This document shows, in pieces, positions 28,311 to 41,815 of a DNA stretch of 64,000 bases. Each line of letters opens with the position of its first letter. Positions within the stretch are counted from its first letter, which is position 1. The DNA comes from Mycobacteriales bacterium (GTDB lineage: Bacteria; Actinomycetota; Actinomycetes; Mycobacteriales; SCTD01): positions 13,127 to 77,126 of the forward strand of contig JAUYQP010000059.1 in the NCBI GenBank assembly GCA_030697205.1, written 5' to 3'. A program made the position numbers and the translations under genes. The notes beneath the pieces were generated by a model. That model saw only the letters and a list, made by a program, of their open reading frames with translations. It did not search any database and was not told where the DNA came from.

Positions 28311-29453
28311 TCACAGCCCGATGCGCTTGCTGATGACCTCGTTCATGATCTCGTCTGTGCCGCCGCCGATGCGCAGGATCCGCGCGTCGCGGTAGTGCCG
28401 CTCGACCTCGCTCTCGCGCATGTAGCCGAGGCCACCGAACAGCTGCACGGCCTCGTCGACGACGTGGTCGCAGGCCGCACAGGCGGTGTTCTTCGCCATC
28501 GACACCTCGGTGACGGCGTCCCCGGTCGTGAGCCAGGCGTCGTACGCCGCCCGCGTCGCGACCCGCGCCGCCCAGGTCTGGCGGGCCATCTCGGCCAGCT
28601 TGTGGCGGACGACCTGGCGCGCGGCCAGCGGCTTGCCGAAGGTGTGCCGGTCCTTCACCCAGGCGAGGGTGAGGTCGAGGCAGCGCTGCGCGGTGGCGAC
28701 GGCTTGCGTCGCGAGGGCGAGCCGCTCGGTCTGGAACTGCATCATGATCTGCAGGAAGCCGGTGCCCTCGGCGCCGACGAGGTTGGCCGTCGGCACCCGG
28801 CAGTCGGAGAAGGACAGCTCGGCGGTGTCGCTGCAGCGCCAGCCCATCTTGTCCAGGGGCCCGCTGACCGTGAAGCCGGGCGTGCCCTTGTCGATGACGA
28901 GCAGCGAGATCCCGGCGTGCCCGTCACCGCCGGTGCGGACCGCGGTCGTGACGAAGTCCGCCCGCACCCCGCTGGTGATGTAGGTCTTGGAACCGTTGAC
29001 GACGTAGGAGTCGCCGTCGCGGACGGCGCGGGTCCGGATGCCCGCGACGTCGGAGCCGCCGTCGGGCTCGGTGACGCCGAGAGCCCCGATGAGCTCGCCG
29101 CGCAGGGTCGGGCGGACGTAGCGCTCGATGAGGTCGGCGTTGCCGCTCTTGGCCATGTGGGGCACCGCGATGCCGTGGGTGAACAGCGATGCGAGCACGC
29201 CGGTCGAGCCGCCCCCGACGACGACCTGCTCGGCGACGATGGCCGCGTCGATGGAGTCGCCGCCCTGTCCGCCGACCGCCTCGTCGAAGCCGATCCCGAG
29301 CAGCCCGGCATCGGCGAAGGTGCGGTGCAGCTCGCGCGGCAGCAGGCCGTCGCGCTCCCACTCGGCCATGTGCGGCGCGACGTGGTCGGCGACGACCTTC
29401 GCGGCGAGGTCGCGCAGCGCGAGCCGCTCGGGCGTCTCCCAGTCGACGCTCAT
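28311..29453 (-). CDS. acyl-CoA dehydrogenase
   Basis: ACAD similarity runs full length (GVTEPDGGSDVAG, FGKPLAARQ, GGLGYMRE, IGGGTDEI). The ATG start overlaps the upstream stop. Confidence 0.92.
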   Translation of the reverse strand: MSVDWETPERLALRDLAAKVVADHVAPHMAEWERDGLLPRELHRTFADAGLLGIGFDEAVGGQGGDSIDAAIVAEQVVVGGGSTGVLASLFTHGIAVPHMAKSGNADLIERYVRPTLRGELIGALGVTEPDGGSDVAGIRTRAVRDGDSYVVNGSKTYITSGVRADFVTTAVRTGGDGHAGISLLVIDKGTPGFTVSGPLDKMGWRCSDTAELSFSDCRVPTANLVGAEGTGFLQIMMQFQTERLALATQAVATAQRCLDLTLAWVKDRHTFGKPLAARQVVRHKLAEMARQTWAARVATRAAYDAWLTTGDAVTEVSMAKNTACAACDHVVDEAVQLFGGLGYMRESEVERHYRDARILRIGGGTDEIMNEVISKRIGL

Positions 29454-30229
29454 GCGCGCTTGTCCCGACCCGGCCCGGGCGGGCCGGCGAAGACCTGCGC
29501 GACGTCGAGCCAGTCGTCGGCGACCGGCCCGGTCACGACCAGGGCCGTGTCCTCGCGGTGCCGCCGCTGCGTGACCAGCAGGCAGAAGTCCAGCGCTGGG
29601 CCGGCGACGACGTCGGTCACGTCGGGGTCACCGAAGCTCCAGGTCCCCCCGTCGGGGGCGGTCAGCTCGACGCGGACGTCACCGGGCGGCACCGGCAGGC
29701 CGCGGTTGGCGTAGGCGAAGCTGCGGGTGCGGAAGCCCAGGTGGGCGATGTGCCGGAGCCGGGCTGTCGGCAACCGCTCCGCGCCGAGCCCGTCGACGAC
29801 GTCCTGGCCGTGCGCCCAGTACTCCATCAGCCGTGCCGTGACGAAGGACGCCGGGCTCATCGGCGGGCCGTACCAGGGCACCTTGGTCGCGGGGTCGAGC
29901 GGCGCGAAGGCGTCGACCATCGCGTCGAAGCCCTGCTGCCACTCGGCGAGGAAGACCTCCGGCGCCGTGCCGCGCCGGCTCGTGACCTGGCCCTGGATGA
30001 AGCCGTCGATGTCGGCGCCGACCGACGGGAGCAGCGCGAGGAAGCCGTCGGGGTCGGTCACGGCGCGGACTGCCTCGACGTCGCTGCCCGCCAGGTGCGC
30101 GAGCGAGTCGCGCACGTCCCAGCCGTCAGCCGGGGTCGGCGCGGACAGGTCCGCGCCGGTGACGACCCTGGCGAGGTCGGCCTGCTCCGCGCGCAGGTCG
30201 TCGAGCAGCGGTCGGTGGTCGGTCGCCAC
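29450..30229 (-). CDS. TIGR03084-like DinB/mycothiol-dependent maleylpyruvate isomerase N-terminal domain protein
   Basis: LLDDLRAEQADLARVV...GWDVRDSLAHLAGSD matches the family N-terminus. GTG 30229 follows AGGAGG. The gene is co-oriented with the ACAD and divergent from the TetR gene. Confidence 0.78.
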   Translation of the reverse strand: MATDHRPLLDDLRAEQADLARVVTGADLSAPTPADGWDVRDSLAHLAGSDVEAVRAVTDPDGFLALLPSVGADIDGFIQGQVTSRRGTAPEVFLAEWQQGFDAMVDAFAPLDPATKVPWYGPPMSPASFVTARLMEYWAHGQDVVDGLGAERLPTARLRHIAHLGFRTRSFAYANRGLPVPPGDVRVELTAPDGGTWSFGDPDVTDVVAGPALDFCLLVTQRRHREDTALVVTGPVADDWLDVAQVFAGPPGPGRDKRA

Positions 30230-30276: not shown

Positions 30277-30834
30277 GTGCGGGGAGTGAGCACAGTCAGC
30301 CCGGTGAGTCCCCGGCGCGAGCTGCTCCTGAGGGCTGCGGCGGCGCTGTTTGCGCACCGCGGCTACCACGCCGTGGGCATCGACGACATCGGCGCCGCAG
30401 CGGGCATCACCGGACCGGGGGTCTACCGGCACTTCGCCTCGAAGCAGGCCCTCCTCGAGACACTCGTCGACCGCACCATGGACCGGATGCTCGACAGCGC
30501 ACATGGGGCTGATCGGATCTCGGACCTGGTCGACCTGCACGTCGAGCTCGTCGTCGGGGAGCGCGCCCTGGTCGGCGTGTGGGTTCGAGAGCAAGGTGCC
30601 CTCGGCGACCAGGTCAGGCGATCGCTACGGAGGCGGATGCGTCTCTACGAGGGGTTGTGGGGAGCCGCGCTGGCTCCGGAGCGCCCTGAGCTGACGTCAG
30701 CGGAGCTCTCCCTGACAGTGGGAGCCGCTCTGGCGATGCTCAACACCACCTCGCTCATCGAGTCGTCCCTGCCACCCGAGCAGCGCGCTGCTGTCCTGCG
30801 CCGCATCACCCTGGCGGCGCTGCTCCCGGCCTGA
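30277..30834 (+). CDS. TetR-family transcriptional regulator
   Basis: HTH region LFAHRGYHAVGIDDIGAAAGITGPGVYRHFASKQALL. Start is GTG 30277 or 30286. Confidence 0.88.
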   Translation: MRGVSTVSPVSPRRELLLRAAAALFAHRGYHAVGIDDIGAAAGITGPGVYRHFASKQALLETLVDRTMDRMLDSAHGADRISDLVDLHVELVVGERALVGVWVREQGALGDQVRRSLRRRMRLYEGLWGAALAPERPELTSAELSLTVGAALAMLNTTSLIESSLPPEQRAAVLRRITLAALLPA

Positions 30835-32635
30835 TCCGCAGCACGTCGGCGTAGCTGGCGTACAGCTGCTCCACGGGCAGAGCCCGATCGAGCAGGTAGC
30901 CCTGGCCCAGCTCGCAGCCGAGCTCGTGCAAGCGGTCCTGCTGCGCAGCAGTCTCGATGCCCTCCCCGACAGTGGACAGCCCCAGGCTCGTCGCAACGCC
31001 CAGGACAGCCGCCACGATCGCCTCGTCGACCGGGTCCTGCCCGAGCCCGGCCACGAAGCTCTGGTCGACCTTGACCGTCGAGGCGGGGAACAGCTTGAGG
31101 TGGTTCAGCGAGCTGAAACCGGTCCCGAAGTCGTCGATGGCCAGTCGCAGGCCCATGTCGTGGAGCTCCCGCAGGACGCGCGCCACGGAGTCGTCGACGA
31201 GCAGCGCGGACTCGGTCACCTCGAGCTCGAGCTGGTCCGGGCGGATGCCCGAGGAGCTCAAGGTCTCGGCCACCTGCCTGACGAAGCCGGGGACCGAGAG
31301 CTGTCGAGGGCTGATGTTGACCGCGAACCGCGGCGGTGTCCTACCGGGCCAGTTCGCCAGCGTGGAGCAGACCTGCTCCAGGACCCACCAGCCCAGACCA
31401 GCGACCAGGCCGCTCTCCTCGACGCCGTCGATGAACTGGGCAGCCGTGAGCAGGCCGCGGGTGGGGTGCGCCCATCGCACCAACGCCTCTACGGCGACCA
31501 GCTCCCCCGTCGCCAGCGAGACCTCTGGTTGGTAGTGGACCTCGAACTCGTGCTCCACCAGAGCGGTCCGCAACTCGGTGTGCAGCAGGAGCTGCTGCGG
31601 AGGGGCGGTGCGCAGCGAGTCGTTGAAGACCTCGTACCTCGCCTTGCCATGCCGCTTCGCCGCGTAGAGGGCGAGGTCGGCGTTCGCGACGGCCTCCTCC
31701 GTGGAGGTCGACCCCTCCGACGCGCACACGGCGACGCCCAGGCTGACGGAAGGGACATAGACCTTGGTCCCGAGGATGAGCGGCGACGAGACGCGTTCGA
31801 GCAGCCGCGCGGCCAGCTCGCCGGCCTTGACGGGGTCGTGCAGCCCGGGGCAGACGATCGCGAACTCATCGCCCCCGAAGCGGGAGACGGTGTCGGTCGG
31901 GCGGACCACCTCATGCATCCGCGCAGCCACCACCCGGAGCAACTGGTCCCCCGCGTCGTGCCCCAGCGTGTCGTTGACCAGCTTGAGGTTGTCCACATCG
32001 AGGAACATCGTGGTGACAGCCTCCGGTCGGAGGAGGGCGGCCTCGAGCCGCTCGAGCAGCAGCCTGCGGTTGGCCAAGCCGGTGAGGGCGTCGTGCTGCG
32101 CCAGGTGCACGAGCTGCAGCTCGCTGGCCTTGCGCTCGATGGCGTAGCGCACTGAGCGCGCCAGCAGCTGGGGCTCAAGTTCGCGCTTCGGAAGGTAGTC
32201 CTGGGCACCGTGCCGCAGCGCCTCCGAGCTCAGCACGTCGTCGTCACGCCGGGTCAGGACGACGACCGGGATCTCCGGCCCAGCTGCGACGACGAGGCGC
32301 AGACCGTCGAGCCCATCGGCGTCGAGCACCCCCAGGTCCAGCAGGACGCAATCGACGTGGTGCCGCGCCAAGTAGGCCTGCGCCTCCTTGATCCGCTCGA
32401 CCCGCTCCACCAGCCAGTCGACCCCCGCCTCACGGAGCAGCTCGACGACCAGGCGTCCATCGGCAGCGCTGTCCTCCACCATCAGCAGGCTGAGCCTGGT
32501 CCGCACAGCGCCGTGACGGCGGTCCTGCAACAGCTCCGGGCTACGCGTCGGAGAGGGCACGTGCAGACCTGTGTCACCGCCGCGGACGGCGACGAGTACT
32601 GGTCGACGGGGGGTGCCCTGATCGGGGCAGGTCAT
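30806..32635 (-). CDS. response-regulator receiver - GGDEF - EAL protein (c-di-GMP turnover)
   Basis: The REC domain has the acceptor context CVLLDLG. The GGDEF motif is intact (RFGGDEFAIV) and so is the EAL motif (VAVEALVRW, DDFGTG). ATG 32635 overlaps the kinase stop (ATGA). The 3' end overlaps the TetR 3' end by 29 nt. Confidence 0.9.
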   Translation of the reverse strand: MTCPDQGTPRRPVLVAVRGGDTGLHVPSPTRSPELLQDRRHGAVRTRLSLLMVEDSAADGRLVVELLREAGVDWLVERVERIKEAQAYLARHHVDCVLLDLGVLDADGLDGLRLVVAAGPEIPVVVLTRRDDDVLSSEALRHGAQDYLPKRELEPQLLARSVRYAIERKASELQLVHLAQHDALTGLANRRLLLERLEAALLRPEAVTTMFLDVDNLKLVNDTLGHDAGDQLLRVVAARMHEVVRPTDTVSRFGGDEFAIVCPGLHDPVKAGELAARLLERVSSPLILGTKVYVPSVSLGVAVCASEGSTSTEEAVANADLALYAAKRHGKARYEVFNDSLRTAPPQQLLLHTELRTALVEHEFEVHYQPEVSLATGELVAVEALVRWAHPTRGLLTAAQFIDGVEESGLVAGLGWWVLEQVCSTLANWPGRTPPRFAVNISPRQLSVPGFVRQVAETLSSSGIRPDQLELEVTESALLVDDSVARVLRELHDMGLRLAIDDFGTGFSSLNHLKLFPASTVKVDQSFVAGLGQDPVDEAIVAAVLGVATSLGLSTVGEGIETAAQQDRLHELGCELGQGYLLDRALPVEQLYASYADVLRIRPGAAPPG

Positions 32636-33780
32636 GCGGGGAGCTCCACTGAGAAGGTGCTCCCACTCGGGCCGGAGTCCACCCAGATGCGGCCGCCCTG
32701 TCGCTCGACGAGCCGCCTGCAGATCGCGAGACCGATACCGCTGCCCGGGTAGCGCTCTCGGCTGTGCAACCTCTTGAACGGCTGGAAGATCCGGTCGAAG
32801 TGCTCGGGCTCGATGCCCACTCCGTTGTCGCTGACCCGGAAGATCACTGTCCCGGGGCTGCACTCAGCCTCGATCCGCACGTGGGGTACGACGCCGGGCT
32901 GTACGAACTTCAGCGCGTTGACCGCGAGGTTGTGGAGCACCTGGGTGAGCACGAGGCGGTTGGCCACGAGCTCCCGCGGGAGCTCCCCCGTCGACACGAG
33001 GGCGCCCGATGTCGCCGTGCTGCCGAGGCCAGCGATGACGTCAGCAACGAGGCGCCGGCAGTCGAGCAGCTCCTGAGGTAGCTCACCGCGCCCCGCCCTG
33101 GCGAAGTCCAGCAGGTCGTCGAGCAACTGCTGCATGCGTTGGGCCGAGTCGATGATGAACTCGCAGAACTCGGCCTCCTCGTTGGTCCTGGTGCGCCGAG
33201 CGAGCCGCTCCGCGAAGCCCTTGATGACGTTGACGGGCTCAGACAGGTCGTGCGAGACCAGGTAGAGCAGCTCCTCCAGGTCCTGCTCCACCGCAGCGAG
33301 CCGGTCAGCCTCCCTCGACGGCGGGGGCACGGCTCGAGACGGCGCGGGGGGCGCGACGGGGGCCGGCATCCTCGCGGGGAAGATCTCGCGCAGCGCCTGG
33401 ATCATGGCCTCCGGCGCCAGACCCTTCTGGAGGTAGGCGTCGGCCCCAGCCTCGAGGACCTGCGACTCCATGGCTGCTCGGTCGAAGCCGGAGAGGATCA
33501 CCACGCGCACATCGGGCAGTGCCTCGCGGAGCAGGGGCATCGCCTCGAGCCCGTCCATCACCGGCATGGCGAGGTCGAGCAGGACCAGATCCGGTACCAG
33601 CTGACGGGCCAGCTCGAGCGCCGCCAGACCGTCGCCCGCCTCGCCCACGACCACGAAGCCGGTGCCCTCGAGCGCGAGGCGCATGAGCATCCTGAGTGTG
33701 GGGGTGTCGTCGACGAGCAGGGTGGTGACCCCGTCCTCTGCGGAGCGCGGAGGGAGCGAGTCCACGACCTGAGCCGTCAT
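32632..33780 (-). CDS. hybrid REC - HisKA - HATPase_c histidine kinase (cytoplasmic)
   Basis: N-terminal REC domain (LLVDD, LVLLDLAMP, YLQKG). H-box LVSHDLSEP, N-box HNLAVNALKF, and G-boxes DNGVGI and GSGIGLAI are present. There are no TM segments. ATG 33780 overlaps the upstream stop (ATGA). Confidence 0.9.
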   Translation of the reverse strand: MTAQVVDSLPPRSAEDGVTTLLVDDTPTLRMLMRLALEGTGFVVVGEAGDGLAALELARQLVPDLVLLDLAMPVMDGLEAMPLLREALPDVRVVILSGFDRAAMESQVLEAGADAYLQKGLAPEAMIQALREIFPARMPAPVAPPAPSRAVPPPSREADRLAAVEQDLEELLYLVSHDLSEPVNVIKGFAERLARRTRTNEEAEFCEFIIDSAQRMQQLLDDLLDFARAGRGELPQELLDCRRLVADVIAGLGSTATSGALVSTGELPRELVANRLVLTQVLHNLAVNALKFVQPGVVPHVRIEAECSPGTVIFRVSDNGVGIEPEHFDRIFQPFKRLHSRERYPGSGIGLAICRRLVERQGGRIWVDSGPSGSTFSVELPA

Positions 33781-34364
33781 GGCTTCCTCAACAGGGCGGG
33801 GCGCGACCTGCGCAGCTCCCCGGCCTCGAAGTCCGGTCGCTCTGTCACCTCGCCGAGCAGCTCGGTGATCAGCCCCCGCGCCGAAGCGAGGGTGGACTCG
33901 AGGGCCTCCCGGGTCACGGCCGTCTGGTCGAGCTCGAGGGCCAGCTTGGCCGTCGCCAGTCCCTGCACGATCCCGTCGTTGATCTCGAGCGCCTGCCGCT
34001 GCCGCTCCCGAAGGTCCTCGAACAGCTTCGCCCCGCTCATGAGCGCGCCGTAACTCCGGCGCAGCGTCCAGTAGTAGATACCGACAGCGGCGGTGAACAG
34101 GTCCCAGGCCACGGTCGCGGGGTCGAAGGCCTGGCGCATGCCGAGCCCGCTCGACGTCGCGAGCCCGAGCGCTGGGAGCAGCGCGTGCACGGCGTGCCCA
34201 CCGTGCACGACGGCACAAGTGAAGAAGATCAGGGCGGTCGCCGTGCCGAGCCGGTTGGCCTTGACCTGCTTCTCCCGGATCAACGGGACGATGATGGCCG
34301 CGACGATGGCGAAGTACGCGACCATCGTCACGATGTTGGCCGCGGCACCGATGCGCCAGCCCAT
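33777..34364 (-). CDS. 3-TM membrane protein with ETR1-like C-x3-H helix and a kinase-dead HisKA_3 (DHp-only) domain
   Basis: ATG 34364 follows AGGGGAG. The TM region has AYFAI (helix 1) and FFTCAVVHGGHAVH (helix 2). The cytoplasmic ERQRQALEINDGIVQGL matches the HisKA_3 H-box with Asn in place of His. The protein ends without an ATPase domain. Confidence 0.75.
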   Translation of the reverse strand: MGWRIGAAANIVTMVAYFAIVAAIIVPLIREKQVKANRLGTATALIFFTCAVVHGGHAVHALLPALGLATSSGLGMRQAFDPATVAWDLFTAAVGIYYWTLRRSYGALMSGAKLFEDLRERQRQALEINDGIVQGLATAKLALELDQTAVTREALESTLASARGLITELLGEVTERPDFEAGELRRSRPALLRKP

Positions 34365-34534
34365 AGCGGACTCCCCTCATCGGCCGGTCGGCGGACAGCA
34401 TGACCCCCCTTGCGGCCGATCGCAGCACCCGTGGCGAAAGACCATCACAACTGGTCATGCGCCCTTGGCCCGCTCGCGCCACCCTTGCGGCGAGGAGGGG
34501 ATCCCCGACGGCTACGCACGCCACGCACCTGCTG

Positions 34535-35143
34535 ATGTTCGCGCTGCCGCTCGTCGTCTTCGCGGGCCTGCTCTGGCTGGAGTGGCGGCGCACGAGCGAC
34601 CGCGTGCGACCCGCGAGGTCCACGCCTGCCCTCATCATGGCGACCAGCAGCGCGGGTGCCGGTGGCGTGCACGCCGTCGTTGTGGGGCCGCACGCCGACC
34701 ACGCCTGGCTGCTCGGTGTCTTCTTCCTCAGCCTCGCCGTGGCACAGCTCGTGCTCGCCCTGGCGCTCCTGGGCCCTGTGCGACCGCGGGTCGTGCTGGG
34801 CTGCGTCGGGCTGAACGCCGGTGTCGTCGCGCTGTGGGTGTGGACCCGCGCCGTCGGTGTGCCCTGGGGGGTCGGCGGTGACCACCGAGAGGCCATCGGT
34901 GCTCTCGACCTCGTCGCCACGGGCCTCGAGGCGGGCTGCGTGGTTGCAGGGGTCCTGTTGCTCTACAGAGCGACCGGGGGCTCCCCCTCCCTGGAGGACG
35001 TGCCCGCGTCGAAGTGGGAGACGTCGACGGTGAGGAACAGCCCACCACCTCGGAAGGTCAGCTCCCCACCAGGACCGCGGCCCTCGCAGGAGACGAACAG
35101 CTTGCGACCCTCGAAGCTGTCCACCTTCGCGACCAGGTCGTAG
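34535..35143 (+). CDS. polytopic membrane protein (4-5 TM, His-containing loops)
   Basis: High GC3, and no competing frame between 34365 and 34962. TM helices include MFALPLVVFAGLLWL, AWLLGVFFLSLAVAQLVLALALL and VVLGCVGLNAGVVALWVW. The start is uncertain (ATG 34535 or 34457). The last 181 nt run antisense through the thioesterase paralog. Confidence 0.5.
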   Translation: MFALPLVVFAGLLWLEWRRTSDRVRPARSTPALIMATSSAGAGGVHAVVVGPHADHAWLLGVFFLSLAVAQLVLALALLGPVRPRVVLGCVGLNAGVVALWVWTRAVGVPWGVGGDHREAIGALDLVATGLEAGCVVAGVLLLYRATGGSPSLEDVPASKWETSTVRNSPPPRKVSSPPGPRPSQETNSLRPSKLSTFATRS

Positions 35144-35490
35144 CGCACCCCTACGAGCACCGGCTTGAGGTACTCGACCTCGAGCTTGCGTGTCACTGCT
35201 GGCTTGCGCACGACAAAGAGGAGGAAGCCGCACACGTCGTCGACGAGCGCAGCGACCGTGCCACCGTGCGCGATCCCGGGAGCCCCGGAGTGCTTCGGTC
35301 CGACCTCGGGTAGTGCGGCGGCAAGGTGCCCAGGGACTCGCTCCACCTGACCGAGGCTTTCGGCAAGCCGATCGGCTCGTTCCAGCACAGCCGCTTCGCC
35401 CTCGCCGAGATGGCTGGCCATGCTCAACGGCACGCCATACCTCGACCCCGCCGTCGCCCCCGACCGCGTGGCGGCGCTCCTCCGCACCAT
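34963..35490 (-). CDS. PaaI-family hotdog thioesterase paralog, N-terminally truncated (possible remnant)
   Basis: From GAPGIAHGGTVAALVDD to the C-terminus it is about 50% identical to the intact paralog at 36554..37066. The first ~60 codons are instead the antisense reading of an ACAD fragment. An alternative start is ATG 35421. Confidence 0.5.
   Translation of the reverse strand: MVRRSAATRSGATAGSRYGVPLSMASHLGEGEAAVLERADRLAESLGQVERVPGHLAAALPEVGPKHSGAPGIAHGGTVAALVDDVCGFLLFVVRKPAVTRKLEVEYLKPVLVGVRYDLVAKVDSFEGRKLFVSCEGRGPGGELTFRGGGLFLTVDVSHFDAGTSSREGEPPVAL
35353..35421 (+). pseudogene. acyl-CoA dehydrogenase internal fragment
   Basis: Plus-strand translation EAFGKPIGSFQHSRFALAEMAGH compares with KAFGKPIGSFQHNRFVLAEMATE in the ACAD at 37059..38201. 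Homology stops on both sides. Confidence 0.6.
35356..35418. repeat. 63-bp segment inverted relative to 37329..37391 (about 87% identity by hand alignment)
   Basis: gctttcggcaagccgatcggctcgttccagcacagccgcttcgccctcgccgagatggctggc aligns with the reverse complement of 37329-37391, with 55/63 matches. Confidence 0.55.
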
Positions 35491-35530
35491 GGTGCTCTCG
35501 GCTCTCCTGGCCCGGCGCGTCCCACGCTGA
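35411..35530 (+). pseudogene. TetR-family regulator C-terminal fragment
   Basis: Frame-2 translation WLAMLNGTPYLDPAVAPDRVAALLRTMVLSALLARRVPR* parallels the C-terminus of the TetR at 30277..30834 (ALAMLNTTSLIESSLPPEQRAAVLRRITLAALLPA*). There is no HTH-encoding part upstream. Confidence 0.5.
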
Positions 35531-35547
35531 CGACGTGCGGGTGAGCG

Positions 35548-36150
35548 TCAGGCGCTGCGACCAGTCTGCCTGGGGTCGTCTGCGAGCACGGCGTGTGCGT
35601 GCATGTCGTGCCACCCGTCAAGGTGCAGGGCCCGCGAGCGCTTCGTGCCCTCCTCGAGGAAACCGGTCCTGACGGCCACCCTGCACGACGCGACGTTGGC
35701 CGTCGAGTGGTTGAGCTCCAGCCGGTGCAGACCGAGCTCGTCGAAGGCCCAGTCAACGACGGCGAGCAGAGCTGCCACCGCGACGCCCCGACCACGTGCC
35801 TCCGGGAGCACCCAGTAGGTGACGCCCGCGCAGGCCTCCGCGAGGCTCATGTCATTCAGCCCGACGCGTCCGAGGACAACGTCAGAACGCGTGATCGCCC
35901 AGCTGCCACCGAGGTCTGTCGCCCAGCGCGAACCCTCGTACGCCACCCACTCCTCCGCCTGGTCGTGCGACAACGACCGGCCGTGCCAGCGCTGGATGTC
36001 GGGGTCGGCGTACGCACGGACCAGCACTGCGGCATCCGACCGGCTCCATGCCCGCAAGGTGGTGCCACCGGCCCGCAGGCGCGGTTGTGGTCGCCGGGAC
36101 AGCGCTCCTTCGCCGAGGGCCGCCACAGGTGCCGCACCGGGCTGCCTCAT
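35548..36150 (-). CDS. GNAT-family N-acetyltransferase (RimJ/RimL-like)
   Basis: LRAWSRSDAAVLVRAY, YWVLPEARGRGVAVAALLAVVDWAF and LHRLELNHSTANVASCRVAVRTGF are present. ATG 36150 overlaps the upstream stop (ATGA). Confidence 0.82.
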   Translation of the reverse strand: MRQPGAAPVAALGEGALSRRPQPRLRAGGTTLRAWSRSDAAVLVRAYADPDIQRWHGRSLSHDQAEEWVAYEGSRWATDLGGSWAITRSDVVLGRVGLNDMSLAEACAGVTYWVLPEARGRGVAVAALLAVVDWAFDELGLHRLELNHSTANVASCRVAVRTGFLEEGTKRSRALHLDGWHDMHAHAVLADDPRQTGRSA

Positions 36151-36493
36151 CTGGCTGCGACCGGCGTTCCCTGGTGGAAGACGAGCAGCCATGCCTCACC
36201 CTGTCGCACCCAGACAGAGCTGCGTAGCGCCTGACGTCGGCCGTCGTCGCTGCGGTACGTGACGAGTGCGATGTCGGGTCCGAGCGACCGCGCATCGAGC
36301 TCGCTCATCGTGACGTCAACGGGGGCGGTGCTGATCGCGTCCGAGACCGAGTCCCTGTCCCAGATGCGACCAGACGCGCCGAACTCGCGGAAGTCGGTGT
36401 GCAGGAGGGCGCGCACGCGCGACGGATCGCTGCGGACCCCGCACGCAGGAGCAGCGCCTCCCGCTCGACCACGAGTCGCAGGTCGTCGCTCAT
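36147..36493 (-). pseudogene. DUF4440/SnoaL-like protein gene interrupted by a 1-nt frameshift
   Basis: ATG 36493 gives MSDDLRLVVEREALLL, then junk. The family continuation VRSDPSRVRALLHTDFREFGASGRIWDRD...VFHQGTP is in another frame (ORF 36147..36416). The frames switch near 36440-36450. Confidence 0.6.
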
Positions 36494-36553
36494 CTGGCGA
36501 CGATATCGACTGCTCGTCCGATCTTCTTGGCTGGCGACGAGAGGGGTTGGGGA

Positions 36554-37066
36554 CTAGGGGGCTGAGGGGTGCTCGGCGTCGCCGCTGCCGTCGGTGCCCT
36601 GGTCGAAGTGCGACAGCTTCACCGACAGGAACAGGGCACGGGCGGTGAAGGCCACTGTCCCGTCGGGGGCCGTGCCGGTGCAGGCGAACCAGTGCTTGCG
36701 ACCGTCGACGGCCTCGACCCTGCCGCGCACCTCGTAAGGCACGCCGAGCAGGACGGGCGCGCGGTACTCGACCTCGAGGTGACGCGTCACGCCGGCGATG
36801 AGGGCGACGTAGAGGCAGAAGCCGAGCAGGTCGTCGCAGACCGTCGCGACCGCACCGCCGTGGGCGATGCCCGGCGCACCACCCTGCCGGCCGGTGAAGA
36901 CGTGGGTCGTGACGACCTCGTCGCCGTCGCGGTGGACCTCGAGGTGGAAGCCGGCCTCCGCGTCGGGGCCGCAGCCGAGGCAGGTCGGGTAGTGCGGGGG
37001 CAACTGCCCCTCGAAGGTCGTCCCGCCGAGCGACCGGAGGTGGTCGCGGACCTTCTCCTCAGACAC
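36554..37066 (-). CDS. PaaI-family (hotdog) thioesterase
   Basis: 170 aa, with GGAPGIAHGGAVATVCDDLLG in the central helix. GTG 37066 overlaps the ACAD stop by 8 nt. Confidence 0.85.
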   Translation of the reverse strand: MSEEKVRDHLRSLGGTTFEGQLPPHYPTCLGCGPDAEAGFHLEVHRDGDEVVTTHVFTGRQGGAPGIAHGGAVATVCDDLLGFCLYVALIAGVTRHLEVEYRAPVLLGVPYEVRGRVEAVDGRKHWFACTGTAPDGTVAFTARALFLSVKLSHFDQGTDGSGDAEHPSAP

Positions 37067-38201
37067 CGAGCGACCGGCCGACGATCTCCTTCATGATCTC
37101 GGTCGTCCCGCCGTAGATGGTCTGGACGCGCGAGTCGATGTAGGCCTTGGCGATGGGGTACTCCATCATGTAGCCGTAGCCGCCGTGCAGCTGCACGCAC
37201 TGGTCGACGACCCGCTTCTGCAGCTCCGTCGTCCACCACTTCGCCATCGCGGCGTCCTGGACGGTGAAGCGCCCCTCGTTGTGCTCGAGGACCGCCTTCT
37301 CGAGGTAGACCTCAGCGATCTCGATCTCGGTGGCCATCTCGGCGAGCACGAAGCGGTTGTGCTGGAAGGAGCCGATCGGCTTGCCGAAGGCCTTGCGCTC
37401 CTTGCAGTAGTCGAGGGTCAGGTCGAAGACCTTGCGCGCCGCGCCCACCGCGACGGCCGCGATCGACAGCCGCTCCTGGGGCAGCTTGTCCATGAGGTGG
37501 ATGAAGCCCTGGCCCTCCTCACCGACCAGGTTGGTGGCGGGCACCCGCACCTCGTCGAAGAACAGCTCGGCGGTGTCCTGCGCCTTCATGCCGACCTTCT
37601 CGAGGTTGCGACCGCGCTCGAAGCCCTTCATCCCGCGCTCGACCGCGAGGATCGAGAAGCCGCGAGCCCCCGCCTCCGGGTCGGTCTGGGCCACGACGAG
37701 CACCAGGTCGGAGTTGATGCCGTTGGTGATGAAGGTCTTCGACCCGGTCACGATCCAGTCGGAGCCGTCACGGACAGCGCGCGTCGCGATCGCCTGCAGG
37801 TCCGAGCCGGTGCCGGGCTCGGACATAGCGATCGCGGTGATGAGCTCGCCGCTGCAGAACTGCGGCAGCCAGCGCTCCTTCTGCTCCTCGGTCGTCAGGT
37901 CGTTGAGGTAGGGCGCCACGACGTCGTTGTGCAGCGTGAAGCCCACGCCGCTGCCGCCGACGCGCGTGACCTCGTGGGCGAGCACGACGTTGTAGCGGAA
38001 GTCCTTCACGCCGCCGCCGCCGAAGCGCTCCGGCACGTCCATGCCGAGCAGCCCCTGCTTGCCGGCCTCGAGCCACAGCGAGCGGTCGACGATGCCGTCC
38101 TTCTCCCACTGCGCGTGGAAGGGCGCGATGTGCTTGTCACAGAAGCTGCGCACCGTGTCGCGGAAGGCGAGGTGCTCCGGGTCGTAGAGGTTCGACTGCA
38201 T
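37059..38201 (-). CDS. acyl-CoA dehydrogenase (isovaleryl/short-branched-chain type by context)
   Basis: ACAD similarity runs full length (AMSEPGTGSDL, FGKPIGSFQHNRF, GGYGYMMEYP, YGGTTEIM). It is divergent from the carboxylase genes. Confidence 0.93.
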   Translation of the reverse strand: MQSNLYDPEHLAFRDTVRSFCDKHIAPFHAQWEKDGIVDRSLWLEAGKQGLLGMDVPERFGGGGVKDFRYNVVLAHEVTRVGGSGVGFTLHNDVVAPYLNDLTTEEQKERWLPQFCSGELITAIAMSEPGTGSDLQAIATRAVRDGSDWIVTGSKTFITNGINSDLVLVVAQTDPEAGARGFSILAVERGMKGFERGRNLEKVGMKAQDTAELFFDEVRVPATNLVGEEGQGFIHLMDKLPQERLSIAAVAVGAARKVFDLTLDYCKERKAFGKPIGSFQHNRFVLAEMATEIEIAEVYLEKAVLEHNEGRFTVQDAAMAKWWTTELQKRVVDQCVQLHGGYGYMMEYPIAKAYIDSRVQTIYGGTTEIMKEIVGRSLGV

Positions 38202-38225
38202 GGCGCTACGTTAGCCGTCGTTCAC

Positions 38226-39845
38226 ATGACCCGCGAGGGAGGCCCCGTGCCCGTCCTAGCCGACCGGATCGACCGCCGCTCCCCGGAGGCGGTGGCCAAC
38301 CGCGCCGCCGCCCTGGCATCGCTGGCCGCCCTCGAGCCGCACCACGAGGCGGCCCGCGGCGGTGGCGGCCCGCGCTCGGTGGAGCGCCACAGGGGTCGCG
38401 GCAAGCTGCTCCCCCGCGAGCGGATCGAGCTGCTCGTCGACCAGGACAGCCCCTTCCTCGAGCTGTCACCGCTCGCGGCGTACGGCAGTGCCTTCCCGCT
38501 GGGGGCGAGCGTCGTCACCGGCATCGGGGTCGTCGAGGGCACCGAGGTGATGATCGTCGCGAACGACCCGACGGTGCGCGGCGGTGCGAGCAACCCGGTG
38601 ACCAGCAAGAAGGTCGGCCGCGCGATGGAGGTCGCCCGGGAGAACCGCCTGCCCCTGGTCAACCTCGTCGAGTCCGGCGGCGCGGACCTGCCGACCCAGG
38701 CCGAGATCTTCATCCCCGGCGGCGCTCTCTTCCGCAACCTCACGCAGTTCTCCGCCGCGGGCATCCCGACGATCGCGCTGGTCTTCGGCAACTCCACCGC
38801 CGGCGGCGCCTACGTCCCCGGCATGTGCGACCACGTCGTCATGGTCGAGGGCCGCGCCAAGGTCTTCCTCGGCGGACCACCCCTGGTGAAGATGGCGACC
38901 GGCGAGGAGAGCGACGACGAGTCCCTCGGTGGCGCCGAGATGCACGCCCGCGTCTCCGGCCTCGCCGACCACCTCGCGACCGACGAGCGCGACGCGATCC
39001 GCATCGGCCGCGACATCGTGAGGGACCTGCGCCACCGCAAGCTCGGCCCCGGCCCGACGCTGTCCCCCGACGCACCACGGGTCGACGCCGACGGGTTGCT
39101 CGACGTCGTCAGCGCCGACCTGCGGGTGCCCTTCGACCCGCGCGACGTCCTTGCCCACGTCGTCGACGGCAGCCGCTTCGACGAGTGGAAGCCGCTCTAC
39201 GGCTCGTCGCTCGTCACCGGCTGGGCGTCGGTCCACGGCTACCCGGTCGGGGTGCTCGCCAACGCCCGCGGCGTGCTGTTCAACGAGGAGTCGGAGAAGG
39301 CCGCGCAGTTCATCCAGCTCGCCAACCGCTCCCACACCCCGCTGGTCTTCCTGCAGAACACCACCGGCTACATGGTGGGGAAGGACTACGAGCAGCGCGG
39401 CATCATCAAGGACGGCGCCAAGATGATCAACGCGGTGAGCAACAGCCGCGTCCCCCACCTCACGATCGTCATGGGCGCGTCCTACGGCGCCGGCAACTAC
39501 GGCATGTGCGGTCGCGCCTACGGCCCGCGCTTCCTCTTCTCCTGGCCCGGCGCGAAGTCCGCGGTGATGGGCCCGGCGCAGCTCGCCGGGGTCCTGTCGA
39601 TCGTCGGCCGGCAGTCCGCCGAGGCCAAGGGACAGGTGTACGACGAAGCCGGTGACGCGGCGATGCGGGAGCTGGTCGAGGCCCAGATCGAGGCCGAGTC
39701 GCTGGCGCTCGCCAACACCGGGCGGGTCTACGACGACGGCATCATCGACCCGCGCGACACCCGCACCGTGCTCGGCCTGTGCCTGTCGGTCGTGCACAAC
39801 CAGGTCGTACAGGGCACCGACGGCTACGGCGTGTGGAGGCACTGA
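38226..39845 (+). CDS. acyl-CoA carboxylase carboxyltransferase subunit (methylcrotonyl-CoA carboxylase beta / AccD1-like)
   Basis: GKLLPRERIELLVD, ANDPTVRGGA, ESGGADLPTQ and NTTGYMVGKDYE are present. Start is ATG 38226 or GTG 38247. Confidence 0.92.
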   Translation: MTREGGPVPVLADRIDRRSPEAVANRAAALASLAALEPHHEAARGGGGPRSVERHRGRGKLLPRERIELLVDQDSPFLELSPLAAYGSAFPLGASVVTGIGVVEGTEVMIVANDPTVRGGASNPVTSKKVGRAMEVARENRLPLVNLVESGGADLPTQAEIFIPGGALFRNLTQFSAAGIPTIALVFGNSTAGGAYVPGMCDHVVMVEGRAKVFLGGPPLVKMATGEESDDESLGGAEMHARVSGLADHLATDERDAIRIGRDIVRDLRHRKLGPGPTLSPDAPRVDADGLLDVVSADLRVPFDPRDVLAHVVDGSRFDEWKPLYGSSLVTGWASVHGYPVGVLANARGVLFNEESEKAAQFIQLANRSHTPLVFLQNTTGYMVGKDYEQRGIIKDGAKMINAVSNSRVPHLTIVMGASYGAGNYGMCGRAYGPRFLFSWPGAKSAVMGPAQLAGVLSIVGRQSAEAKGQVYDEAGDAAMRELVEAQIEAESLALANTGRVYDDGIIDPRDTRTVLGLCLSVVHNQVVQGTDGYGVWRH

Positions 39846-41815
39846 TGCCGGTCATCACCCGGGTGCTCGTCGCCAACCGCGGCGAGATCGCCCGCCGGGT
39901 CTTCCGCACCTGCCGCGACCTCGGGCTGTCGACGGTCGCGGTCTTCAGCGACGCCGACGCGGACTCACCCCACGTCCGCGAGGCCGACGCGTCGGTGCGC
40001 CTGCCGGGGACCGCACCGTCGGAGACCTACCTGCGCGGCGACCTCGTTATCGCCGCAGCCCTCGCCACCGGCGCCGACGCGGTCCACCCCGGCTACGGCT
40101 TCCTGTCCGAGGACGCGGCCTTTGCCCAGGCCGTCGTCGACGCGGGCCTCACCTGGGTCGGCCCGCCACCGGAGGCGGTGCGGCTGATGGGCTCCAAGCT
40201 CGGTGCGAAGGCGCTGATGGCCGACGCCGGCGTGCCGTGCCTGCCCGGCGCCGACGTCACCGACCTGCCCGCCGCCGACGTGCAGGCGGCAGCGACCGCC
40301 ATCGGCTACCCGGTGCTCGTCAAGGCCAGCGCCGGCGGCGGCGGCCGCGGCATGCGGGTCGTGCGCGACGAGGCCGACCTCGTCGACGCGGTCGCGAGCG
40401 CGCAGCGCGAGGCCGCCTCGGCCTTCGGCGACGCCACTGTCTTCCTCGAGCGCTACGTCGACAGCCCGCGCCACGTCGAGGTGCAGGTCATGGCGGACAC
40501 CCACGGCACCGTCGTCGCGCTCTTCGAGCGGGAGTGCTCGATCCAGCGCCGCCACCAGAAGGTCGTCGAGGAGGCCCCCTCCCCCGCCGTCGACGAGGCC
40601 CTGCGCGCGCGGCTGTCAGAGGCCGCGGTCGCGGCCGCCAAGGCCGTCGACTACACCGGCGCCGGCACGGTGGAGTTCGTGCTCTCCCCCGACGGCGAGC
40701 CGTTCTTCCTGGAGATGAACACCCGCCTGCAGGTCGAGCACCCGGTCACCGAGCTCGTCACCGGCCTCGACCTCGTCGCCCTGCAGCTGCTCGTCGCCGA
40801 GGGCCACCCGCTGCCGCCCGAGGCGACCAGCGCGACCCTGTCCGGCCACGCGATCGAGGCCCGCCTCTACGCCGAGGACGCCACCGCCGGGTTCCTCCCC
40901 GCCAGCGGCACCCTCCACCGCTTCGACATCCCGGCGACAGCGGGCGTCCGCGTCGACGCCGGCGTGGAGAGCACATCGGTCGTCAGCACCCACTACGACG
41001 CGATGCTCGCGAAGGTCGTCGCCCACGGCGCGACCCGCGCGCAGGCCGCGAGCCGGCTCGCCGCGGCGCTGCAGGGCGCCCGTCTGCACGGCGTCACCAC
41101 CAACCGCGACCTGCTCGTGCGGGTCCTGCGCTCGCCGGACTTCCTGGCCGGTCGCACCGACACCGCCTTCTTCGACCGCCACGACCCATCGGTCCTCGGG
41201 GCCGGTCTGCTCGACGACGACGGCCGTGCCCTCCACGCCGTTGCCGCGGTCCTCGCCGCCGTCGCCCACCGCCGCGCCACCGCGACGACGCAGGCCGGGC
41301 TGCCGACCCGCTGGCGCAGCCTGCCGAGCGCCCCGGAGACCACGGCCTTCGTCGACGGCCCCGTCGTCGCCTACTCCTTCCCGCGCGGGGGCGTCGAGGT
41401 CGACGTCGACGGCCGGCGCCTCGAGGGCGTCACCCTGTGGTCGGCCACCGCCGAGGAGGTCGACCTCGAGGTCGCGGGGGTGCGCCGCCGCTACGCCGTC
41501 GCGCGACAGGGCTTCACGGCGTACGTCGACTCCGCCTTGGGCAGCGCCGTGCTCGAGGAGGTCGAGCGCTTCCCGCTGCCCGGCTCGCAGCTGGCCGAGG
41601 GCGCGCTGGTCGCCCCCATGCCCGGCAGCGTCGTCCGGGTCGACGCGACCGTCGGCGCCGAGGTTGCCGCCGGGGACGTGCTGGTGGTGCTGGAGGCCAT
41701 GAAGATGGAGCACGCGGTGCGGGCGAGCGCCGCCGGGACGGTCACCGAGGTGCACGTCGCTGCCGGCGAGCAGGTCGATGCGGGTGCCCTGCTCGCAGTG
41801 GTCGCACCGGCCTGA
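39845..41815 (+). CDS. biotin carboxylase + BCCP alpha subunit (methylcrotonyl-CoA carboxylase alpha / AccA1-like)
   Basis: VLVANRGEIARRV and the ATP-grasp domain are present, with the C-terminal biotinylation motif LVVLEAMKMEH. The ATG start overlaps the upstream TGA by 1 nt. Confidence 0.93.
   Translation: MPVITRVLVANRGEIARRVFRTCRDLGLSTVAVFSDADADSPHVREADASVRLPGTAPSETYLRGDLVIAAALATGADAVHPGYGFLSEDAAFAQAVVDAGLTWVGPPPEAVRLMGSKLGAKALMADAGVPCLPGADVTDLPAADVQAAATAIGYPVLVKASAGGGGRGMRVVRDEADLVDAVASAQREAASAFGDATVFLERYVDSPRHVEVQVMADTHGTVVALFERECSIQRRHQKVVEEAPSPAVDEALRARLSEAAVAAAKAVDYTGAGTVEFVLSPDGEPFFLEMNTRLQVEHPVTELVTGLDLVALQLLVAEGHPLPPEATSATLSGHAIEARLYAEDATAGFLPASGTLHRFDIPATAGVRVDAGVESTSVVSTHYDAMLAKVVAHGATRAQAASRLAAALQGARLHGVTTNRDLLVRVLRSPDFLAGRTDTAFFDRHDPSVLGAGLLDDDGRALHAVAAVLAAVAHRRATATTQAGLPTRWRSLPSAPETTAFVDGPVVAYSFPRGGVEVDVDGRRLEGVTLWSATAEEVDLEVAGVRRRYAVARQGFTAYVDSALGSAVLEEVERFPLPGSQLAEGALVAPMPGSVVRVDATVGAEVAAGDVLVVLEAMKMEHAVRASAAGTVTEVHVAAGEQVDAGALLAVVAPA

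Follow-up and report, generated by a model that had tools for sequence, protein, structure and literature searches.

The locus described here lies in a stretch of 64,000 nucleotides (nt) of contig JAUYQP010000059.1 from a Mycobacteriales bacterium, a soil actinobacterium, which stretch we call the window and whose first letter is position 1 of all coordinates given below. The window has a G+C content of 73% and its closest relatives are metagenome-assembled genomes (MAGs) of Mycobacteriales (89-91% identity). An open reading frame on the minus strand, 33777..34364, translates into a protein of 195 amino acids (aa), hereafter the sensor, in which a domain of three transmembrane (TM) helices resembling the Pfam family ETR1_N is followed by a hairpin that resembles the dimerisation and histidine phosphotransfer (DHp) domain of histidine kinases and lacks its His. 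A Shine-Dalgarno-like sequence, GAGGGGAG, was read 6 nt 5' of the ATG. The membrane sensor domain, delimited by the ETR1_N match, residue conservation and hhalign alignment, takes up residues 1-116 (34017..34364, minus strand), and the HisKA_3-like dimerisation hairpin, delimited by Pfam HisKA_3 and AlphaFold2, residues 117-173 (33846..34016, minus strand). An initial annotation of this DNA had singled out the interval 34050-34364, which is residues 1-105 of the 195-aa protein, as a membrane domain with the copper-site spacing seen in ETR1, an ethylene receptor from plants. Translation and codons bear this spacing out: A-Y-F-x-I and C-x3-H occur as described, and the distance from Y17 to C50 is 33 residues, the same as from Y32 to C65 in ETR1. 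The codons of C50-A-V-V-H54, read directly, occupy 34203..34217 on the minus strand and specify the residues equivalent to C65 and H69, which hold Cu(I) in ETR1, with Cys50 encoded by TGT at 34217-34215 and His54 by CAC at 34205-34203; the codons of two further His residues, H57 and H60, are found at 34196-34194 and 34187-34185.

The first TM helix bears N10 and A16-Y17-F18-A19-I20, the second N37, T43, F47 and C50-AVV-H54-GG-H57-AV-H60, and the third, separated from the second by a short outer helix, W87, D88, T91, A92, Y98 and R102, after which comes a juxtamembrane motif, Y105-G-x-L-x2-G-x2-L-F. In the AlphaFold2 model of the sensor (mean predicted local distance difference test score 81.8, over 90 across the TM region) helices span residues 2-30, 38-66, 70-79, 82-100, 111-144 and 148-170, the last two forming the helical hairpin. 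An N-terminus outside and an output domain inside agree with the positive-inside rule, given the basic stretch REKQVKANR linking helices 1 and 2 and the RR past helix 3. A Foldseek comparison of this model with the PDB gave no match with E < 1.

The sensor belongs to a large and well conserved family. The full-length protein has 763 homologue clusters at E <= 0.001, and a profile search with residues 1-116 gave 374 representatives at 50% clustering; the residue counts that follow are for 115 representatives, also at 50% clustering. The four positions for which a survey had been proposed in the initial annotation are kept throughout the family: Y17 in 107 of the 115, I20 in 111, C50 in 107 and H54 in 113, and both C50 and H54 are invariant in a set of 31 homologues. 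Comparable values were obtained for N10 (102, with Ser in nine and Asp in two), N37 (113), T43 (111), F47 (112), D88 (100), Y98 (112) and R102 (all 115), with H57 kept in 97 and H60 in 78. About 105 representatives have both C50 and H54, and 70 possess the complete Cys-His-His-His combination at 50, 54, 57 and 60; the residues at positions 10 and 88 gave no informative pattern of covariation. Near-invariant polar residues in such number within three TM helices speak for a site that binds a cofactor or ligand, and against an anchor. The domain is situated N-terminal to PAS, HisKA-HATPase_c, GGDEF-EAL, REC, Hpt, SpoIIE or HD domains in 56 longer proteins, and because of its fusion to so many outputs we regard it as a modular and genuine sensory input module. 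A scan of 185,579 species genomes with two family-specific motifs picked out at least 273 of them. Carriers are Actinomycetota (Mycobacteriales and Frankiales MAGs, cultured Nocardioides species such as N. psychrotolerans (L026) and N. kribbensis (L047), Marmoricola, Jatrophihabitans, Virgisporangium, Acidimicrobiia, Solirubrobacterales and Sporichthyaceae) and also MAGs of Chloroflexota and Dormibacterota; a search for plasmid-borne homologues of the sensor found none.

Similarity of this domain to the ethylene-binding domain was examined with profiles of several kinds. The reference sequence, ETR1 residues 1-134, was validated by 90% identity to 'ethylene receptor' proteins carrying PF25487 (ETR1_N). 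This is the sole Pfam family matched by the N-terminal half of the sensor, with residues 7-70 aligned to profile positions 7-70 without a gap (E = 1.5e-4, 22.4 bits), which is the register that had been proposed for the first two TM helices. All 31 sampled homologues match ETR1_N as well (best E = 1.6e-6), and so do ten of ten additional ones, in a single register throughout. Two relatives of 197 aa with the same architecture, P0104 and P0108 (55% identical), reach 28.6 and 28.7 bits, above the curated cut-off of the family, and none of 30 reversed or block-shuffled family sequences matches it, even at E <= 1. With a hidden Markov model built from canonical domains, real family sequences score about 5 bits over their shuffles, and more than 10 bits were obtained for 17 of 115 real sequences and for 3 of 4715 controls. 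The likeness to ETR1_N is thus more than composition. Profile-profile comparison by hhalign gave a borderline-significant match, where the initial annotation would have taken the lack of any, or a lack of conservation at C50 and H54, as a refutation: the 115 family representatives aligned with 129 ethylene-binding domains at P = 1.1e-4, pairing N10 with D25, Y17 with Y32, I20 with I35, C50 with C65 and H54 with H69, and an extension of low confidence places D88-L-F-T-A opposite K91-V-L-T-A. The profile that performed best was the canonical set enlarged with proteobacterial stand-alone domains, and significance rose from P = 0.025 with an 18-sequence ethylene-receptor profile because the receptor profile was made more diverse. 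An unrelated family of neighbouring membrane proteins, used as a negative control against the same profile, gave P = 0.17. Distant homology of the sensor domain to the ethylene-binding domain is therefore, as far as these comparisons of sequences go, quite probable.

The proteobacterial stand-alone domains deserve separate mention. P0177, P0425, P0436 and about 90 other proteins, from many proteobacteria (Exilibacterium, Maricaulis, alphaproteobacterial MAGs), are canonical ethylene-binding domains of 120-150 aa without an output domain, and could serve as compact candidates for structural work on this domain. A sequence search of solved structures with the whole family, the canonical ethylene-binding domains and the C-terminal hairpin returned only designed helical repeats.

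Residues on which ethylene binding by ETR1 depends are in part kept and in part replaced in the family. Canonical plant and proteobacterial alignments show no variation at D25, Y32, I35, I62 and H69 and almost none at P36, C65 and K91; Tyr32, invariant here, we take to be a member of the essential set. Phe in place of Ile62 is the change in the dominant ethylene-insensitive allele etr1-4. In two reports citing Wang 2006, the ethylene-binding domain is defined by seven residues needed for binding (PMC11819568, PMC6944256). I35, P36, I62, C65 and H69 are described as essential (PMC6586836), as is D25 for ethylene binding (PMC10266040). Y17, I20, C50 and H54 of the sensor correspond to Y32, I35, C65 and H69. 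N10 takes the place of D25, which supports copper and ethylene binding and bridges to Lys91, and P36 is replaced at position 21, where the window protein has Val and the family A, S, T, V, C or M. These two differences, already pointed out for N10 and V21 in the initial annotation, are family-wide. I62 corresponds to the near-invariant F47 and K91, in the low-confidence part of the alignment, probably to D88; the family alignment has no conserved Lys or Arg within helix 3. The copper-ligand core is kept and the pocket around it is different. Asn at the D25 position is natural in 3.67% of ethylene-binding domains, and ETR1-D25N works in planta, while in vitro it showed minimal residual copper binding and ethylene binding was undetected in the assays used (PMC10266040); the D25N exchange lowers the ethylene affinity of ETR1 about 100-fold (PMC10266040, PMC11971883).

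The domains of ETR1, SynEtr1 and AzoEtr1 likewise have three N-terminal TM helices of the same topology, with A-Y-F-x-I and C-x3-H at identical spacing, and are likewise situated at the N-terminus of two-component or cyclic di-GMP (c-di-GMP) signalling proteins. The sensor differs from ethylene receptors in two extra conserved His residues (H57 and H60) after C-x3-H, in an outer loop which is 12 residues longer and contains a short helix, and in being without a GAF domain and, here, unfused to a working kinase. Distribution is also different, the sensor family being found in Actinomycetota, Chloroflexota and Dormibacterota and ethylene receptors in cyanobacteria, proteobacteria and plants. Judged by these residues and this architecture, the sensor is not a canonical ethylene receptor, and high-affinity binding of ethylene by its membrane domain is very doubtful. 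A bound metal is plausible by analogy with the receptors. An intramembrane His/Cys site proposed to hold copper and to detect metal-coordinating molecules is also known from the MHYT domain and from the mouse odorant receptor MOR244-3 (PMC10266040); neither has a sequence relationship to the sensor, and the Pfam MHYT model is not matched. As to novelty, the initial annotation knew of no described actinobacterial sensor of this type, and none was found in the literature searched either, which covers reviews incompletely and leaves absence unproven.

The protein is not a sensor complete in itself, and its apparent place as one subunit of a split system went unseen in the initial annotation: its C-terminal half is a DHp-like hairpin lacking both the His and an ATPase domain, which would have to act through the REC-histidine kinase encoded next to it. 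Residues 120-173 align to profile positions 1-56 of HisKA_3 (E = 0.009, 17 bits for a cut-off of 24), and this family is matched by 21 of 31 family members at E <= 0.1 and by 0 of 30 shuffled controls. The motif of the hairpin is E-R-Q-R-Q-A-L-E-I-N129-D130-G-I-V-Q134, in which the position of the phospho-accepting His is Asn (N129). This Asn is invariant in the 31 homologues, as are D130 and Q134 of DxxxQ, the HisKA_3 phosphatase motif needed by NarX-type kinases (PMC3510030). E[IL]ND...Q is present in 72 of the 73 loci in which the motif was found (of 80 loci), with His occurring once. HATPase_c was not matched in the sensor protein, whose chain ends at residue 195, about 20 residues past the hairpin. 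Because the His is replaced by Asn and an ATPase domain is missing, the hairpin cannot be phosphorylated. Kinases of the HisKA_3 type (NarX, DesK, LiaS) share with it E-R-x-R-x-A-x-E-[IL]-x-D-x3-Q-x-L on the first hairpin helix, right after the last TM helix, and differ in having His instead of Asn, a HATPase_c domain and a NarL-type transcription factor rather than a REC-HisKA kinase as neighbour. Pseudo-kinases and auxiliary phosphatases of two-component systems, such as DivL (Tyr for His), CheZ and CheX (DxxxQ or ExxN), are likewise unable to autophosphorylate and could engage a receiver (PMC3510030). The sensor differs from them in being embedded in the membrane with a sensor domain of its own, and none of those families is a sequence relative. 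The single locus with His belongs to a Jatrophihabitans sp. MAG (L030, 4001-4624), where the sole stand-alone member of this kind, a protein of 207 aa without an ATPase domain, reads ELHDAVLQ; it may be an evolutionary intermediate.

Two genes follow the sensor on the minus strand, each overlapping its predecessor by ATGA. The first, 32632..33780, whose start overlaps the sensor stop at 33780-33777, encodes a REC-HisKA-HATPase_c protein of 382 aa (Pfam Response_reg 3e-26, HisKA 9e-14, HATPase_c 4e-26). The second, 30806..32635, overlaps the kinase stop at 32635-32632 and encodes a REC-GGDEF-EAL protein of about 609 aa from the ATG at 32635 (EAL 6e-68, GGDEF 5e-39, Response_reg 4e-15). Of 76 loci in which the sensor stands alone and the sequence downstream is long enough, 75 have a gene encoding a REC domain immediately downstream of it, and in 64 of these a kinase core was detected as well (domain-wise BLAST, with independent gene calls as a further source); REC-GGDEF-EAL is third in order also in the window's own clade (L004-L012). 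The translation of this third gene has an intact RFGGDEFA, an RxxD I-site (RPTD) five residues upstream and the EAL motif VEALVRW, and with both motif sets intact, synthesis as well as breakdown of c-di-GMP is possible. This gene order suggests that the sensor is one subunit of a split signalling system, and the system appears to feed the c-di-GMP pathway. Best matches of the kinase REC domain among solved structures are NarL, VraR and LuxR-type receivers alongside CheY, a mixture that hints faintly at docking of the HisKA_3-like hairpin.

Divergent from the sensor, on the plus strand at 34400..35143, an open reading frame encodes a multi-TM protein of no assigned family (the partner), with a conserved core at about 34600-35000 and a true start probably within 34457-34535. 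It has no match in Pfam or NCBIfam, and hhalign shows no relationship to the sensor domain (P = 0.2). One of its TM helices contains a conserved H-x6-H, and further motifs are G.FF......Q..W, LW..TR..G.P.G and G..D......E. A homologue adjoins the sensor gene in 63 of 83 loci, co-directional and abutting in 53 and divergent in ten; the former arrangement is that of Nocardioides-type genomes (for example 3306-4004 in L026) and the latter that of the window's clade. Over 34963-35143 the partner gene is convergent with a gene for a 4HBT thioesterase (34963-35490, minus strand), the two overlapping at their 3' ends. The partner protein ends in a tail of low complexity whose 'conservation' is confined to the window's clade and probably reflects this gene on the opposite strand, and the stop given, like the functional C-terminus, is tentative. 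In L004 the partner gene was missed by JGI gene calling.

The explanation we favour, and on which our confidence is evenly balanced, is that the sensor belongs to the ethylene-binding-domain superfamily as a divergent and probably metal-dependent branch which probably responds to a ligand other than ethylene at hormone-like affinity and acts as the input subunit of a split system. The three-helix domain would be homologous, though divergent, to the ethylene-binding domain in ETR1, SynEtr1 and AzoEtr1, and the Cys-x3-His pair of helix 2, opposite Tyr17 and Ile20 in helix 1, may hold a metal cofactor, by analogy Cu(I). The site would have been remodelled, with Asn10 for Asp25, Phe47 for Ile62, probably Asp88 for Lys91, Pro36 gone and two His added one and two turns nearer the outer face, and because of this remodelling the signal is probably not ethylene at hormone-like affinity. 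More likely it is another small molecule that is redox-active or coordinates the metal, or else the metal itself, through its occupancy or its state of oxidation. From the site the signal could pass via helix 3 and the juxtamembrane motif into the HisKA_3-type hairpin, which we propose as a docking or phosphatase module because it is HisKA_3-like, has DxxxQ and is coupled to REC kinase genes. It would dock on the receiver domain of the translationally coupled REC-histidine kinase and probably dephosphorylate it, and this action on the receiver would gate phosphotransfer to REC-GGDEF-EAL and so control c-di-GMP turnover. The His-bearing partner might, more speculatively, load the cofactor or take part in sensing.

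A bolder form of this proposal, which we put forward tentatively and consider unlikely in its entirety, would make the family a new ligand-specificity class, a Cu(I)-dependent intramembrane receptor widespread in soil Actinomycetota and belonging to a split system whose His-less DHp would dephosphorylate receivers under control of the signal and whose cofactor would be loaded or shared by a dedicated membrane partner. Candidate ligands of such a class would be small and metal-coordinating: ethylene (at higher concentrations) and other alkenes or alkynes, the gases CO and NO, sulfides, thiols and isonitriles.

Several observations weigh against the favoured explanation. At 22.4 bits the window protein itself is below the curated ETR1_N cut-off of 27 bits, the hhalign probability is 57% at best and only 13% (P = 0.002) when 41 mostly plant sequences are used, hhalign in global mode gave an insignificant result for the family against ethylene-binding domains, and the alignment of helix 3, on which the pairing of D88 with K91 depends, is of low confidence. 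Nor is there, among solved structures, one of an ethylene-binding domain with which the fold could be compared. The score of the hairpin is likewise under the HisKA_3 cut-off, no HisKA_3 kinase was found when its profile was compared with PDB sequences, the kinase REC domain resembles CheY-type receivers as much as those of the NarL type, and phosphatase or docking activity is purely what we infer. The partner is absent in 19 of the 83 loci (Acidimicrobiia, Dormibacterota, Chloroflexota and fused forms). Finally, no copper, alkene or ethylene metabolism genes were found around the locus, and the neighbourhood gives no pointer to copper handling or to a given ligand.

Three other explanations were considered. 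The one that survives best, and which we still regard as unlikely, is that the sensor is a metal-ion sensor, in which the Cys-His-His-His ladder of helix 2 would reversibly bind copper, or else Zn, Ni or Co, arriving from outside the cytoplasm and metal availability would be the signal. C50, H54, H57 and H60 are indeed spaced at i, i+4, i+7 and i+10, from mid-membrane to the outer face, the partner has its conserved intramembrane H-x6-H, and the TM domain of ETR1 has a femtomolar affinity for Cu(I), the ligands being the corresponding Cys and His (PMC6586836). However, the last step of the ladder, H60, is kept in just 78 of the 115 representatives, no genes for resistance to, or efflux of, copper or other metals are located close by, either in the window or in the conserved neighbourhood, and the output is c-di-GMP and not a metal-efflux regulator.

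That the likeness to ETR1 is convergent or coincidental is quite unlikely. The domain would then be an unrelated module, such as an anchor or a sensor of lipids, quinones or redox state, with its Cys and His used for e.g. haem or thiol chemistry. The modest profile-profile probability and the sub-threshold Pfam score of the window protein are in accordance with such a view, as is the fact that most positions of helices 2 and 3 are unlike ETR1, and the HisKA_3 kinase DesK uses plain TM helices for sensing. It is opposed by the match of 41 of 41 members to ETR1_N in one register, two of them over the cut-off, with none among the 30 controls; by the matching positions being the functionally critical ones; and by about a dozen near-invariant polar intramembrane residues, which are unlike a passive anchor.

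A bona fide ethylene receptor, in which Cu(I) at C50 and H54 would bind ethylene, perhaps with lower affinity, and let soil actinobacteria perceive it from plants or microbes, would suit the register and the copper-ligand pair, the conserved equivalents of Y32 and I35, the natural occurrence of Asn at D25 with a still functional ETR1-D25N (PMC10266040) and the phosphorelay signalling and biofilm control of non-plant bacterial receptors (PMC11819568), which fits a c-di-GMP output, but it is very unlikely, and ethylene as the ligand has accordingly lost ground since the initial annotation, given that three essential residues are changed family-wide (D25 to Asn, P36 to a variable residue and I62 to Phe; PMC6586836, PMC10266040, PMC11819568), that D25, I62 and, nearly, P36 do not vary in canonical domains, that D25N by itself costs about 100-fold in affinity (PMC11971883), that K91 is probably replaced by Asp, and that H57 and H60 are without counterpart in ethylene receptors.

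Returning to a divergent, metal-dependent member of the superfamily, its value would lie in the question of selectivity, since ligand selectivity of the copper site of the ethylene-binding domain is still argued from models (PMC6586836, PMC10266040). The family keeps the Cys/His/Tyr/Ile core and swaps Asp25, Ile62 and Lys91, the residues thought to tune copper and ethylene binding, and would therefore amount to a natural mutagenesis experiment and possibly to a sensor for a different small molecule. The architecture is also unusual, with a sensor domain joined to a phosphorylation-dead DHp and coupled to REC-kinase and c-di-GMP enzymes; if the proposed roles are true, it would offer an example, open to testing, of a receiver phosphatase that is bound to the membrane and under signal control. 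Should the metal site not exist, the finding shrinks to an ordinary, uncharacterised membrane input domain.

The remaining genes on both sides of the locus, at 28311-30229 and 34963-41815, are those of ordinary acyl-CoA/leucine-type catabolism and small enzymes. Among them are two acyl-CoA dehydrogenases, an MDMPI_N protein, two 4HBT thioesterases, a GNAT protein and a DUF4440 protein, together with a carboxyltransferase and a biotin carboxylase of the methylcrotonyl-CoA carboxylase type, and the same neighbours are present in L004.

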